A stretch of DNA of 63,417 bases, counting the filler, from Desulfonatronovibrionaceae bacterium (lineage in GTDB: Bacteria; Desulfobacterota; Desulfovibrionia; Desulfovibrionales; Desulfonatronovibrionaceae): the NCBI GenBank assembly GCA_046539845.1. It is 3 parts of 3 records of this genome, joined end to end, with 100 filler letters (N's around TTAATTAATTAA, not from the genome) between each part and the next. Parts side by side here need not be neighbours in the genome. Positions count along the whole stretch, not along the records: positions 1 to 27,426 come from JBKHGE010000030.1; 2 more parts are not named here. The stretch is one strand, 5' to 3'. The number at the start of each line of letters is the position of its first letter. Position 1 is the stretch's first letter. The translations under genes and the position numbers were made by a program. This document shows positions 1-53,169 of this stretch, piece after piece. The notes beneath the pieces are model-generated. The model had not been told where the DNA came from and did not search any database. It was given only the letters and a program-made list of their open reading frames with translations.

Positions 1-356
1 ACCGCGTGGCCACGGGCATCATCAGGGCGGCCACGGGCATTATCAGGGCGGCCACGGGCATTATCAGGGCGGCCACAGGGGGCCGCCCCTACGATGACAA
101 CAATTCCATGAATATGGTTGGGCATGACAACAAACGCATCAATTCCAATTCCAGGATAATGCAACGGGATTTCATCCCATACCGTTTGTACCATCCGCCC
201 TGCATCGTTCGATACCATTTCCCGGTTCACAATTTCACCGAACAAACATTCCCGGTTCTGGGTACAGATGGTCACAAAATACGCCCCGGCCTGTGAATAA
301 TCGTATTCTTTCAATCGAATCGACCGGCGATGACGAATATCGGGATTGTATTTCAT
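1..356 (-). CDS. REP-associated tyrosine transposase (RAYT, Y1/HUH family), 3' part outside the window; missing from the ORF track
   Basis: Manual translation from ATG at 356: [42 protein letters not shown]...DAFVVMPNHIHGIVVI. Contains the RRSIRL..YDY..G.YFVTICT signature and the HUH motif MPNHIHG. ATG overlaps the hsdS stop (ATGA). Confidence 0.9.
   Translation of the reverse strand, partial: MKYNPDIRHRRSIRLKEYDYSQAGAYFVTICTQNRECLFGEIVNREMVSNDAGRMVQTVWDEIPLHYPGIGIDAFVVMPNHIHGIVVIVGAAPCGRPDNARGRPDNARGRPDDARGHA
8..77. repeat. Tandem 21-bp repeat (3 full copies plus a partial) inside the RAYT gene
   Basis: GGCCACGGGCATYATCAGGGC at 8-28, 29-49 and 50-70, partial at 71-77. Encodes (GRPDNAR)n in frame on the minus strand. 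Confidence 0.95.
66..92 (-). repeat. REP-like palindrome (GTAG plus GC-rich hairpin)
   Basis: Minus strand GTAG-GGGCGGCC-CCCTGT-GGCCGCCC-T: GTAG tetranucleotide followed by a perfect 8-bp stem, the typical REP layout. Confidence 0.85.
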
Positions 357-1657
357 AGCCCGGCCTCTTCAATAAATTTCTCGGCATTCGGAGGTCGCAG
401 TTCTCCGGAAATGAGCTTCGGGAGAAGAGTTTCGCGAAGAGAAGCAAGAAAACCATTTTCATTAATATTTGCCAAAATATAATCCATTAATGGCTTTAAC
501 ATACTGTCAAAAGAATTGGTAAGTTTAGCTGGTGGACAGGCTATTCGGAGAGTCTTAAAGGTATCGCGTGTGATCGTGTTGAATACGGACCCATGTCCAC
601 TCCTCTGTAAATCAGCTACCTGTCTCCTAATTGTAAAATAAACGAAATAATCGCTTATGCCGTGTTTGCTCTGGAGCCCGTAACAGGATTGATTCATGGC
701 CATTGACCGTCCCACCAGAGCACACTTTCCAACCGTGCCCCGCGCACTAATTATCGTTGTCCCTTTGCGAAGTACTTTAGCAGATGATTTTTCAACCCCA
801 AGCTGGGTAATATGCTTCTCAGTATCAGTTACAAATACATCTGTTTCACTCGGCGCATCCACAACTGAAAACCAAGGGATATCACCATCCCAATATTCCT
901 TCACTTTTGTTTTCGGCGTTCCCCCGCCGATTATGTCTAAGACTTCGGATAGTGGTAAAACCCTCCACCCCGCCGGAATCTCCCCCAGCTCCGAATCTTC
1001 AAAACTATCAGGAAAAAGCGCTGCAATCTCCTCAGGCAAGCCTGTATCCCGGCCTTCAGCCTTGGCATACACCGGATCAAAATCCACGAACCAGGACTTA
1101 AAGATGGCACGGGCCATAGATTCCAGGGTTTCGTTCATCTGGCGGTTGAGTTCTATTTTGTCGTCGAAGGAGCCGAGGATGTGAGCTATGGCGCGTTGTT
1201 CCTCATATGGTGGGCAATAAAATGAATATTTTTGAAGAGTCGGTGCGGGTACACGTTGCCGCCCAGAGGAGCCCTCCATACGAGCTATTGCGAAGTTACG
1301 AAATTGAGGTAAACGGGAAAGATAATAGACGAAGAGCTTATCTGTAACGCCTTCAATTCCTGAAAGCACTATAAATTCTGTTGAACCATGCCCTACTTCC
1401 ATGTCCTCAAGAAAATCCACATAGGCAGTTTTCCCATTTTCAAGGCAAGGCGTAATACGCGCTAAAAGTGTATCTCCATTCTGAAAACGAGAACCTGACC
1501 CCTTGAAGGGCCTATGAGCAATTTCGTTGACTGATCGATTTTCAGACTCGACTTGCTGCATTGATATATATACTGAGTCGACACCTTTGCTGAGGGGGCG
1601 CGATGGATTTATTGAGATTAAATCCCCCAATTCACAGCGTTTCCAATCATTCCCCAT
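353..1657 (-). CDS. hsdS: Type I restriction-modification specificity subunit
   Basis: Two TRDs separated by the conserved [37 protein letters not shown] spacer; ends [13 protein letters not shown]. Confidence 0.95.
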
Positions 1658-3479
1658 AACCCAAGACCTCCAGATTCTTCTTAATCGCAGTCTTTAGCCT
1701 GTCGGACTCGGCAAACTGCTCATACAGCGTGGCGGAAAGTTCAGACATCTTCTCCTCAAAAGGGATGCCGCCTGCCTGCCGCGCCCGGCCTTCGGCGATG
1801 GCTTTTTTGATCCATCTGCGACCTGATGTGGTTTTTAGTTCTTTTTCACGAGCAACTGCTTCTTCTCTGCTTTGAAATTCCTCATAGTGAGGAATGTATC
1901 GAGGCTTGTTTTTCTTCGTCCAATCTGCGCCTTTACCGGTGATATGCTCTTGCCATCGCCGAGGAAGGTTGTCTGTATGTCCGATATAATAGCTGTCACC
2001 TTCACATGCGATCACATAAACGAAGAACACACCCGGCCGCGGCGCAGGCAGGTCATCTTCGATTTCAGCAGCCCCCACATATCGGCCCGGAGTCAAAACA
2101 TAGCCGTGTTCCCGAATTTTTTCAGTGGGAACACTTTTGCAAAAGCCCGGCACATCCTCATAAGTCCCGGCGCCTTTCTCCCCGCGCCAGGCATGATAGG
2201 TGGCGGCAATTTTTTGTATGTCATTGTCAGAAAGTTCTCTATGCACACGGTCTATCAATTCGCCCATGTTTCGAGCATCGATAAAAAGCGTGTGTTTTTG
2301 TCTGTTTTGAAACTTACCGTTGCTTTTGTTTCTGGACAGAAACCACAAACAGGCCGGGATTTGAGTGGTATAGAAAAGCTGCCCCGGCAGGGCAATCATG
2401 CAGTCTACCAGGTCATCCTCGATAATGGCCTTTCGGATTTCGCCTTCCCCTGAACTATTGGAAGACATGGACCCGTTGGCCAGGACGAAGCCGGCGATCC
2501 CGGAAGGAGCCAGGTGATAAATGAAATGTTGAATCCAGGCGTAATTGGCATTATTTACCGGCGGTATGCCGTATTTCCACCGGGCATCCTCCCGCAGTCT
2601 CTCCCCGCCCCAGTCGTTCATGTTAAAGGGCGGATTGGCCAGGATATAATCCGCGCGCAGGTCTTTATGCAGGTCATTGTGGAAGCTGTCCGCGTTTTGT
2701 CCGCCCAGATTGGCGTCTATTCCCCGGATAGCCAGGTTCATCTTGGCAAGGCGCCAGGTTGTGGGATTGGACTCCTGGCCATAAATAGAAATATCCCCCA
2801 GCCGGCCGCCGTGTTCTTCCACGAATTTTTCACTCTGGACAAACATGCCCCCTGAGCCGCAGCAGGGGTCAAAAACCCTGCCCTTGTAGGGCTCAATCAT
2901 ATTGACCAACAGTTTGACCACGCATTGGGGAGTGTAGAATTCACCGCCACCCTTGCCCTCGGAGGCTGCAAACTTGCCCAAGAAATATTCATACACCCGG
3001 CCAAGAACGTCCCTTGATTTTGCTTCATCATCGCCAAGCCCGATTTTGCTGATAATGTCGATAAGCTCACCCAGACGGTATTTGTCCAGGGATGGGCGGG
3101 AGTAGTCCTTGGGCAGCACACCTTTAAGGTTCGGGTTTTCTTTCTCAATAGCCACCATGGCATCATCAATGACTTTGCCAATGGTCGGCTGCTTGGCATT
3201 GGCCTGCAGCTTGTCCCAGCGGGCTTCCTTGGGAACCCAGAAAATATTGGCGGCCGAATATTCGTCCCTGTCCTCCGGATCTGTATATTCAGTCTCTTTT
3301 GTGGCTTCCAGCTGGTTGTATTTGGCTTGAAATGCATCGGATATGTATTTGAGGAAAATCAGTCCGAGAACCACGTGTTTGTACTCGGAAGCGTCCATGT
3401 GGCCCCGGAGTTTATCCGCAGCAGCCCACATCTGATTTTCAAAGCCGAGATTGGCTCCGTTGTTGTTCTTCTTTGTCAT
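1647..3479 (-). CDS. hsdM: Type I R-M methyltransferase subunit with an in-frame GIY-YIG insertion near the C-terminus
   Basis: N-terminal [22 protein letters not shown], motif I DPCCGSGG, motif [14 protein letters not shown]; 94 extra residues lie between EIEDD and GIPFEEKM. Confidence 0.95.
1771..2052 (-). mobile_element. 282-bp inverted-repeat-bounded insertion encoding a GIY-YIG nuclease domain, in frame within hsdM
   Basis: Ends CCTGCCTGC (1771-1779) and GCAGGCAGG (2044-2052) are perfect inverted repeats. Insert encodes [27 protein letters not shown]...[10 protein letters not shown]. Removal restores GAA GAT GAC GGC ATC CCT TTT (EDDGIPF). Mobility is inferred. Confidence 0.8.
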
Positions 3480-3796: not shown

Positions 3797-3873
<77 letters not shown>

Positions 3874-39685: not shown

Positions 39686-41533
39686 ATGCCTGAAAGGAAA
39701 GACAACAATAAATTACGCAATATCGCCATCATCGCCCATGTCGATCACGGCAAGACCACCCTGGTGGACGCCATGTTCCGGCAAAGCGGTCTCTTCCGTG
39801 ACGGCCAGGAAGTGGATGAACGGCTCATGGACAGCATGGACCTGGAACGGGAACGCGGGATCACCATCGCGGCCAAGAACTGTTCCGTGATGTGGAACGG
39901 GGTGCGGATTAATATTATCGACACCCCCGGCCATGCCGATTTCGGAGGGGAAGTGGAGCGGGCCCTGTCCATGGCCGACGGAGCGATCCTTTTGGTGGAC
40001 GCCTCGGAAGGTCCTCTGCCCCAGACCAGGTTTGTTTTGAGCAAGGCCCTTGCCGCCGAGCTGCCCATAATAGTGGTCATGAACAAAATCGACCGCCAGG
40101 ATGCAAGACCGGCGGAAGTCCTGGATGAGATCTACGATCTCTTGATCGAGCTGGACGCATCCGAGGAACAACTTGAGTTCAGCCTTTTCTATGCCGTGGG
40201 ACGGGACGGGGTCGCCTCCCGTTCTCAGGATGAGCCCGGCAAGAACCTGCATCCCCTGTTTGAGGCCATCCTTAAAGACATACCCGGCCCGAAATACACC
40301 CCCGGAGCCCCGCTGCAGATGCTGATCTCCGACCTGGGTTATTCCGATTTTGTCGGCCGCCTGGCCGTGGGCAAGGTGGCCAACGGGTCTATCCGGGTAA
40401 GAGACAACCTGATCTGCATCGGAGAAGGAGAAGACCATAAGCCGCTGAAAATATCCAAGCTGCAGATTTACGAAGGCATGCAGATGAAGGACGTGGAAGA
40501 AGTGGAAGCCGGGGACATAGCAGTAGTGGCCGGACTGGACACCATCCGCATCGGGGACACCATATGCAGGCAGGACGATCCCCGGCCGCTGCCGCGCATA
40601 ACCGTGGATAAGCCCACTGTGGCCATGAAATTCGCGGTCAATGACTCGCCCTTGAGCGGCCGGGAGGGAAAATACATCCAATTCACCCGCATCCGGGAAC
40701 GCTTGGAAAAGGAAGTCCTGGCCAATGTGGCTATCGCCCTGGAGGACACCGAAGACCCGGACACGGTCCTGGTCAAGGGCCGGGGGGAATTTCAGCTGTC
40801 CATCCTGATCGAGACCATGCGCCGCGAAGGATATGAATTCAGCATAGGCCGGCCGGAAGTTATCTTCCGTTATGAAAATGGGGAAAAGCAGGAGCCCATG
40901 GAGCGACTGCTGGTGGACTGCGAAGAACAATTCATGGGCGTGGTCACGGAAAAGCTTTCTTTGCGCAAGGGCAAGATGACCAATCTGGTGAATAACGGCC
41001 AGGGCCGGGTGCGCATTGAATTCTCCATTCCCGCCCGGGGACTTATCGGCTACCGGGACGAATTTTTGACCGACACCCGGGGATCCGGTCTCCTGCATTC
41101 CAGATTCGACGGATATGGACCGTTTCGCGGAGATTTCCCCTCCCGGTTCAGCGGCTCAATCGTGTCCGACCGCTCCGGCAAGGCCGTGCCCTACGCCCTG
41201 TTCAATCTCGAACCCCGGGGGCAGCTCTTTATCCAGCCCGGGGAGCCGGTCTATGAAGGCATGGTCATTGGAGAGCATAACCGCGGACAGGACATAGACG
41301 TAAACCCGTGCAAGGAAAAAAAGCTGACCAATGTCCGGGCCTCGGGCAAGGATGAAAGCGTGACCCTGACCCCGGTCAAGCCTTTGTCCCTGGAGCTGGC
41401 CATAAGCTTTATCCGCGAGGATGAACTCCTGGAGGTGACTCCCGTTTCCCTGCGTATGCGCAAGCAGATTCTATCCGCCCAAAAAAGACACACCCAGCAG
41501 GCCAGGAAACGCAAGATGGAAGACGAAGGGTAA
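39686..41533 (+). CDS. typA: Translational GTPase TypA/BipA
   Basis: RNIAIIAHVDHGKTTLVD, ERERGITI, DTPGHADFGGEVER, NKID, GRGE..L.ILIETMRREG. Confidence 0.98.
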   Translation: MPERKDNNKLRNIAIIAHVDHGKTTLVDAMFRQSGLFRDGQEVDERLMDSMDLERERGITIAAKNCSVMWNGVRINIIDTPGHADFGGEVERALSMADGAILLVDASEGPLPQTRFVLSKALAAELPIIVVMNKIDRQDARPAEVLDEIYDLLIELDASEEQLEFSLFYAVGRDGVASRSQDEPGKNLHPLFEAILKDIPGPKYTPGAPLQMLISDLGYSDFVGRLAVGKVANGSIRVRDNLICIGEGEDHKPLKISKLQIYEGMQMKDVEEVEAGDIAVVAGLDTIRIGDTICRQDDPRPLPRITVDKPTVAMKFAVNDSPLSGREGKYIQFTRIRERLEKEVLANVAIALEDTEDPDTVLVKGRGEFQLSILIETMRREGYEFSIGRPEVIFRYENGEKQEPMERLLVDCEEQFMGVVTEKLSLRKGKMTNLVNNGQGRVRIEFSIPARGLIGYRDEFLTDTRGSGLLHSRFDGYGPFRGDFPSRFSGSIVSDRSGKAVPYALFNLEPRGQLFIQPGEPVYEGMVIGEHNRGQDIDVNPCKEKKLTNVRASGKDESVTLTPVKPLSLELAISFIREDELLEVTPVSLRMRKQILSAQKRHTQQARKRKMEDEG

Positions 41534-52837: not shown

Positions 52838-53169
52838 AGGCGGCTCCCGTTGGGGACTTCGGCATCCGGCACGGCCAGGACAATGGCCCCGTCCCCACGA
52901 TCGAATCCGGTTATCAGGCACTCGGACATAAACGGCCCGATCTGCCGGGGCGGAAAATTGACCACGCCGAGGACCTGCCTGCCCACAAGACTCTCAACAT
53001 CATACACATCAGTTATCTGGGCGCTGGAATTCTTTATTCCAATTTCCTGCCCGAAATCCACCTTGAGCCTGTACGCGGGCTTTCTGGCTTCAGGAAACTC
53101 CCTTGCCTCGACAATAGTCCCCACCCGCAGGTCAACTTTTTCAAAATCCACCCATTGTATTTGTTCCAT
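52831..53169 (-). CDS. csaA: CsaA-family tRNA-binding/export chaperone
   Basis: [37 protein letters not shown]. Confidence 0.95.

Follow-up and report, generated by a model that had tools for sequence, protein, structure and literature searches.

The hsdM gene of a type I restriction–modification (R-M) system, located in a stretch of 63,417 nucleotides from a Desulfonatronovibrionaceae bacterium (the window), carries a 282 bp element in which two GC-rich inverted ends enclose a single UPF0213/SLX1-like GIY-YIG nuclease. The element is widespread and mobile. With a probability of about 0.55, we regard it as a selfish mini-element of ~280–300 bp that exists as an unspliced domain of host proteins and whose own nuclease starts its spread. 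A stronger version, to which we give somewhat less than even odds, would make it a new class of autonomous transposable element (~280 bp) in which the GIY-YIG nuclease mobilises itself and a large family of palindromes of 18–39 bp while remaining a permanent unspliced host domain; the class rests on architecture. The whole family is apparently undescribed, as an earlier note on this DNA had suspected: no published description was found in a search of mostly open-access literature, without ISfinder, and the supplements of the Ssn paper may list members. The features of the locus, numbered along the window, are as follows.

1771..2052, minus strand: complete 282 bp element; its blunt insertion splits the Asp codon of the empty site GATGA^CGGC (coding strand)
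2040..2052, minus strand: left (5') end CCTGCCTGCGCCG, translated L-P-A-P; the same 13 bases in 12 of 12 cassettes from a pattern fixing only nine
1771..1781, minus strand: right (3') end CGGCAGGCAGG, translated R-Q-A-G, which pairs with the left end; the same 11 bases in 12 of 12 cassettes
1818..2024, minus strand: GIY-YIG nuclease core, HsdM residues 486–554 (Pfam PF01541)
1647..3479, minus strand: hsdM, the host gene, which encodes the methyltransferase subunit of a type I R-M system (610 residues filled, 516 without the insert)
353..1657, minus strand: hsdS, partner gene without insert (context)
3797..3873, minus strand: tRNA-Met gene upstream of hsdM (context), a possible integration site of the R-M locus

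The earlier note had described an insert of 282 bp with perfect 9 bp inverted ends, extendable to about 20 bp, that lacks a stop codon and whose deletion restores a 516-residue HsdM, and the sequence bears this out. The element starts with CCTGCCTGC and finishes with GCAGGCAGG, and its inverted arms reach ~20 bp with a 2 nt bulge. The ends pair in a predicted single-stranded DNA fold (z = −2.6, with equal stability in three of 100 shuffles) and also in a predicted RNA fold (z = −2.2). The encoded insert (LPAP...ARQAG, 93–94 residues) is in frame in the 610-residue HsdM with zero stop codons and consists throughout (all 93 residues) of the end peptides and the nuclease. The compact GIY-YIG domain proposed by the same note is recovered by Pfam at residues 486–554 (E = 5.9e-14), alongside HsdM_N and N6_Mtase; it has the PF01541 fold and the Tyr, Tyr-x-Gly, Arg, His and Glu residues of the GIY-YIG superfamily, with Tyr488, Tyr498, Gly500, Arg508, His512 and Glu545 all intact. 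The GC content is 44% in the element interior, 51% in the hsdM gene and 55% in the genome. The insert is positioned in the linker ahead of the C-terminal helix of HsdM, and an AlphaFold model based on a 78-sequence alignment (mean pLDDT 84; insert mostly 85–92) predicts it to be a separate domain between a low-confidence linker (residues 473–476) and the C-terminal helix (residues 574–606). The remainder of the model agrees with the HsdM structure 3KHK. That transposase and intein features are lacking, as had been noted, also holds: GIY-YIG is the only Pfam match in the element and the NCBIfam search gave zero matches, which leaves no recognised transposase, and Pfam finds no Hint domain, nor do the junctions have Cys, Ser or Thr or a terminal Asn as in an intein. 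The CCTGCCTGC-type 9-mer has four matches in the window against 0.89 expected, a number reached in three of 100 shuffles; this count alone is weak evidence for an element, and the proof is the comparison with empty alleles. Apart from the element's own ends, the window has CCTGCCTGC 9-mers at 40566–40574 and 52974–52982.

The empty site sought in close hsdM orthologues was found. In a genome of the same family (L027), hsdM is empty and colinear over the site, with 81% identity across 1542 nt and 0 gaps, and a contig from run X4 carries an empty allele with 97.6% identity on one side (12 differences in 497 nt), net length unchanged and two synonymous base differences adjoining the junction. Separately assembled contigs of X1, X2 and X3 cross both junctions with 0 differences and rule out an assembly chimera; X1–X4 all come from one study, and X1 or X2 may be the source of the window assembly. 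The element has terminal inverted repeats and matching empty sites, as IS elements and MITEs do, and a target-site duplication of the DDE-type IS/MITE kind is ruled out by the empty alleles and the listed metagenome loci (see below). The reported absence of a target duplication stands, but the '1-bp C ambiguity' mentioned with it is specific to the window site, because 43 of the 119 metagenome loci listed have a base other than C following the element, which also rules out a one-base duplication.

A tree was built from 78 HsdM proteins after deletion of the cassette (65 are filled and 13 empty alleles, selected from 120 listed of 1573 matches); in it, the window HsdM groups with two empty proteins of 96% identity with a support of 100. 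The filled/empty label needs six changes on this tree, four of which strong branches make unavoidable, and a close 23-row subset rejects one clade for all filled alleles (AU p = 2e-52). As R-M genes recombine, these switches may be gains, precise losses or conversions, and the best explanation of the window copy is a gain or re-gain in a lineage with empty closest alleles. Cassette and host identity are correlated at the hsdM site (Spearman 0.62), and therefore much of the spread is inheritance with the host gene; cassette identity can also far exceed that of the host (87% for the cassette and 57% for the host in P0017). In the comparison made for co-conversion of the flanks, synonymous sites are near saturation.

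The family was collected in several ways. A full LPAP...RQAG cassette is present in 94 of 120 proteins listed (of 1573 matches), mostly at the same HsdM codon; the other hosts among those 120 comprise other HsdM sites, HsdS, integrase, RarA-like, radical-SAM and SNF2 proteins. A profile compared with 1.84 billion representative proteins matches 127 proteins at E up to 1e-30, and both end peptides are kept in 98 of the 151 domains of the top 150 proteins. When 401 genomes from the phylum of the window were searched with the profile in all six frames, with stops read through, nine copies (E < 1e-26) were recovered in eight genomes, seven in stop-free frames of 310–1251 residues and two decayed. 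At the DNA level, a loose pattern with 9+9 fixed bases has at least 120 loci in a GTDB sample; the 120 matches listed include 12 cassettes, all with the longer ends CCTGCCTGCGCCG and CGGCAGGCAGG, 11 of them in frame and the remaining one with an extra CCTG. The records of these 12 name eight phyla (Planctomycetota, Desulfobacterota, Latescibacterota, Spirochaetota, Nitrospirota, WOR-3, Omnitrophota and Verrucomicrobia). The other 108 listed loci have no cassette between the ends, and the loose pattern is mostly matched by chance. Carriers have one or two cassettes per genome. Carriage by phages is not supported, as the 23 viral loci matched by the loose pattern all lack a cassette and protein-guided viral scans gave no close member. 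Of two HsdS-type proteins, P0121 has two cassettes and P0177 has a truncated cassette immediately ahead of a full one.

A strict pattern was applied to metagenomes, in which loci were picked by their ends and a size of 269–299 bp and not by content (at least 119 loci); it fixes the terminal 13+11 bases, so that the conservation of the ends rests on the other sets (the GTDB cassettes and the protein domains). This nuclease is encoded by 116 of the 119 loci listed, in 114 cases as an in-frame fusion, once with its own start and stop and once frameshifted. Bounded cassettes of 3n length in unrelated host genes, which the earlier note had proposed to look for, are what these 114 represent. Phase-2 fusions account for 112 of the 116; in these the host frame stays open on either side for 18 codons or more, or as far as the fetched DNA extends. 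Two 291 bp elements (L189 and L279), inserted near the 3' end of genes identified by eye from the sequence as fabF-like, are read in another phase (PACAAP...GAAGR). In the self-contained locus (L260, 287 bp), the same ends enclose a separate ATG and stop; this form matches proteins of 78–83 residues (P0324, P0327 and P0329) and is a candidate for the ancestral one. The ends are common to the fused forms in two frames and the self-contained form. Survival as a translational fusion that uses the host's start and stop is therefore the rule among the listed loci (114/116) but is not obligatory, as L260 demonstrates. The phase-2 fusions and the fabF-like lineage in another frame imply that the reading frame is a property of the lineage, which is suggestive of selection for read-through. 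Main-lineage cassettes are oriented almost only in the sense direction and in frame and have no start or stop of their own, and the host protein therefore carries an extra folded domain.

The 111 unique elements from these listed loci fall into 48 site clusters, or ~45 distinct sites after allowing for over-splitting; with the precise empty alleles, this upholds the idea of a mobile unit with conserved ends at many unrelated loci. Hosts were named by Pfam for 110 of the top 150 proteins and for representatives of 35 of the 48 site clusters. R-M and helicase genes (HsdM/S/R, type ISP, type III Mod, DUF1156 and SNF2/NOV_C helicases) predominate, and the position of the insert differs among the HsdM, HsdS and HsdR hosts. 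Other hosts include Fic, UvrB, RNase R, FDX-ACB (PheT-like), ArgRS (a Taylorbacteria protein), TrmD, trigger factor, QueC, FolK, MsrB, MGMT, TatD, pseudouridine synthases, NUDIX, SET and TfoX; ArgRS, TrmD and trigger factor come from the protein search and not from end-defined metagenome loci. Some inserts lie in or beside motifs that we take to be catalytic: inside HPFQN^GNKR of Fic (L172, L274 and P0257), four residues past PCHRV (PCHRV..D^G) in MGMT (L164, L244 and P0189) and in HVFDD^G of MsrB (L194 and L199). The frames are open in all of these. Insertion at such motifs is hard to square with harmless tolerance.

Insertion is blunt, without duplication, at R^Y and mostly at GA^YG. Target information is restricted to positions −2 to +2 (G 36, A 36 ^ C/T 38, G 33 of 47 site clusters). 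The split codon is Asp in 24 of the 47 clusters, and Asp-Gly stands at the insertion site in 13 of the 47 versus a background of 0.5%, an excess in which a DNA preference and probable selection for turns are mixed. R^Y flanks are found for 35 of 47 long elements and for 35 of 59 non-redundant short elements (described below), the latter count being raw for base composition and kinship; their occurrence in both suggests shared machinery. A preference for hairpin-prone targets was rejected, as the predicted folding of empty sites is no stronger than that of control GAYG sites (p = 0.95).

In the unique stop-free cassettes, Tyr12, Tyr22, Gly24, Arg32, His36 and Glu69 are kept in at least 109 of 111. 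Among same-site cassettes, about half of the synonymous codons are identical to those of the closest relative (e.g. 36/71), and the closest cassettes in the protein set are 84–94% identical. Judged from such comparisons, the cassette nuclease is under purifying selection. The highest DNA identity between elements at different sites is 77%; with no near-identical elements at different sites, jumps to new sites therefore look old or rare in the sample. Elements that occupy one site are often grouped in the DNA tree, yet several sites turn up in more than one branch. A set of one cassette per site cluster (48 clusters) and four related copies forms one clade (SH-aLRT 99) that adjoins other small stand-alone GIY-YIG genes and is apart from an SRM-flanked Ssn-like clade (98), in a quick tree of 104 columns with weak deep forks and with an SRM clade of two SRM-flanked genes, whose Ssn identity is inferred from an SRM-like pattern. 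The best solved relatives are UPF0213 proteins (PDB entries 1ZG2 and 1YWL; E = 7e-17 and 5e-16), followed by SLX1 (E ≃ 1e-3). UPF0213 members occur as separate proteins and SLX1 as a larger repair nuclease of eukaryotes; terminal repeats are not known from either. The repeats around seven stand-alone GIY-YIG genes are of other types, with zero of the cassette-end family; four such genes (L345, L332, L333 and L347) lie beside other repeat families (40–156 bp) or near tRNA-like repeats.

Gene-less copies of 18–39 bp have the same ends as the cassettes. Long ends with 0–30 bases between them occur at 32 viral loci, some of them duplicates, and the viral short elements listed are 24–36 bp, in varied frames and with lengths that are all multiples of three. 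Ten carrier genomes have 0, 0, 0, 1, 1, 1, 2, 3, 10 and 110 short copies by the 9+9 pattern, numbers that do not track their cassette counts. No elements of intermediate size (51–111 bp) were found in 251 genomes of the phylum of G044. The link that had been drawn between the element and short palindromes with the same ends holds in that gene-less copies exist, but the window genome has zero short CCTGCCTGC...GCAGGCAGG copies among its 75 9-mer matches, and arrival of the element with the R-M locus, or copying onto it, is therefore probable. Two sites of the window genome (G000 C9:12034 and C39:1537) have a short imperfect hairpin of the kind CCTGCCTGC-N2-4-GCAGGC without the full right end. 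Genome G041 has a larger intergenic repeat with constant flanks and dozens of copies (G041:C1, e.g. L367–L399), inside which its most frequent 33-mer is nested, and the 19-mers are mostly outside long frames (5 of 25 in frames open for 60 codons on each side). A type I R-M operon of the same genome (L396:1623–15669) contains a GIY-YIG cassette, several in-frame short palindromes and DUF559-like domains with other palindromic ends, in frame in hsdM and hsdS; DUF559 looks like a parallel in-frame cassette system (also in P0034, P0040, P0045, P0138 and L179).

The closest parallel in the literature is Ssn (cd10448), a tiny single-domain GIY-YIG protein that is likewise tied to a palindromic repeat family, with catalytic spacing (Tyr6/Tyr17/Glu64 in SsnA) that agrees with that of the cassette (Tyr12/Tyr22/Glu69) (PMC11893778). 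SsnA binds the hairpin repeat and cuts single-stranded DNA beside it, and Chenal et al. (2025) remark that the NTS-ssnA-NTS layout resembles an IS, with mobility only a hypothesis in that article (PMC11893778). However, Ssn is a free-standing gene and each SRM is a whole hairpin, whereas the cassette has half-ends inside the coding frame; NTS rarely occur in genes (2%), in contrast to 114 fusions among the 116 listed cassettes, and the word 'fusion' is absent from the main text of the article (PMC11893778). The cassettes form a separate clade in the quick tree, with a different (CCTGCCTGC-type) repeat and a fused layout, which places them outside Ssn. Rickettsia palindromic elements, intragenic REPs and MITEs are palindromic inserts translated in frame in unrelated proteins, and the short CCTGCCTGC copies are alike; the Rickettsia elements and intragenic REPs encode short peptides only, as far as these sources go, whereas the long form encodes a conserved nuclease (PMC10969869, PMC3733652). 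In the text available, 'GIY-YIG' has no occurrence in PMC10969869 and 'CCTG' none in PMC3733652. The short copies, but not the long form, are RPE-type in being non-autonomous and without an enzyme. REP/RAYT and IS200/IS605 systems resemble the element in having hairpin ends, no duplication, precise empty sites and a single-copy enzyme gene with many short copies (in part PMC3733652, PMC11893778). They use an HUH Y1 transposase, whereas the element has no HUH domain and its GIY-YIG nuclease is fused into host proteins.

A first alternative takes the ends for a MITE/REP family that some other enzyme, a transposase or the free-standing relatives (78–104 residues), mobilises in trans, with the GIY-YIG domain as cargo kept for another reason. 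We consider this unlikely, although several observations lean towards it: short copies far outnumber long ones in some genomes, R-M operons gather several unrelated in-frame inserts (e.g. DUF559 with other palindromic ends) and a RAYT-like ORF below the curated cut-off lies right downstream of hsdS in the window. Against it, the cargo at this size is nearly always of one clade (116 of 119 listed), its catalytic residues are kept even in hosts without a DNA role, and G071 has two cassettes and zero Y1 transposase matches. A Y1 transposase as partner was rejected for want of a tight association with cassette ends, which tightly bound none of 25 Y1 loci (any 9-mer lies within the fetched DNA in three of 25). 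A homing endonuclease without intron or intein, where the fusion cuts empty alleles, gene conversion copies it and new sites are rare accidents, is a less probable account still. Homing endonucleases occur in inteins, in group I introns or free-standing; the element is like them a GIY-YIG domain translated within a host gene, with one codon occupied repeatedly. In its favour, hsdM lineages that diverge strongly from one another and are interleaved with empty ones are filled at one and the same codon, same-site elements often cluster on the tree and the two synonymous differences at the junction of the 97.6% empty contig are a weak hint of co-conversion. Yet the ~45 unrelated sites have only about four target bases in common (47 site clusters, family-wide), which is no long specific target in a cognate allele, and the cassette has neither a splicing domain nor an additional DNA-binding domain. 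Homing also requires no terminal repeats, which here are inverted, invariant and present even without the gene.

That the domain is an adaptive fusion giving R-M subunits an extra nuclease activity is very improbable. R-M or helicase defence genes make up most of the hosts and the domain is intact and predicted to fold, but the same insert is found in ArgRS, TrmD, trigger factor, QueC, FolK and MsrB, its position varies in HsdM, HsdS and HsdR, and the closest alleles are empty. The earlier suggestion of an added nuclease activity for the methyltransferase accordingly finds no support, filled and empty hsdM alleles being interleaved. A last possibility, that the element is taken out of the transcript or the translated product in the manner of an intron or intein so that the host protein is restored, would accommodate the pairing of the ends in RNA and the inserts in conserved motifs and essential genes; we give it hardly any credence, as a 3n length with read-through (114/116 among listed loci) is needless for RNA splicing and the Hint domain and junction residues for protein splicing are absent. 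None of the RNA runs listed contains the stretch.

In the selfish mini-element that we prefer, the host gene would supply transcription and translation, and the nuclease would recognise the paired ends on single-stranded or cruciform DNA and cut at the stem base or at the empty site. This recognition and cutting are modelled by analogy on SsnA, a hairpin binder that cuts adjacent single-stranded DNA. GIY-YIG enzymes hydrolyse DNA without a covalent intermediate, and strand joining therefore needs a partner; host repair or ligation would complete precise excision and insertion, including those of gene-less copies. Out-of-frame landings would yield no nuclease, kill the host gene and be lost. 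Once in an R-M gene, the element would also ride along, with horizontally moving R-M loci as vehicles. Points that weigh against this reading are the need for a joining partner, the 77% ceiling on identity between elements at different sites, the correlation of cassette with host identity, short-copy numbers that do not track cassette counts, the nested 33-mer of G041 and the inserts at catalytic motifs.

By the tests applied, the element is not an IS, an intein, a homing endonuclease, an Ssn or an RPE, yet it is demonstrably mobile. If the nuclease drives this movement, GIY-YIG joins the chemistries that move DNA, and the question of what spreads transposase-less palindromic repeats, such as the CGTC REPs (PMC3733652) and NTS-ssnA-NTS (PMC11893778), becomes testable. 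If the stronger version is true, the cost of landing in genes is solved by a permanent unspliced host domain, even in essential enzymes, in one of the smallest possible elements (~280 bp). The family also amounts to a domain-insertion screen run by nature, in which tolerant loops of dozens of proteins are marked, and it explains many 'X + GIY-YIG' fusions that are open to misannotation as new defence enzymes. Scarless insertion by a 93-residue nuclease that requires 24 bases in cis would make it attractive as a tool.

Two loci merit description in their own right. The RAYT-like Y1 transposase ORF of the window (3–356, minus strand), directly downstream of hsdS, is cut by the contig end and matches NF047646 with E = 1.5e-6; it holds, in its own frame, a GTAG-type palindrome translated VGAAPCGRP and three 21 bp tandem repeats. 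At L492 (G870:C2:257768–257992), an A4-type gene overlaps the 3' end of an apparent hsdR gene, and just after its stop a related short palindrome ending in GCAGGCAGG is followed by an apparent second copy of the hsdR-like 3' end.
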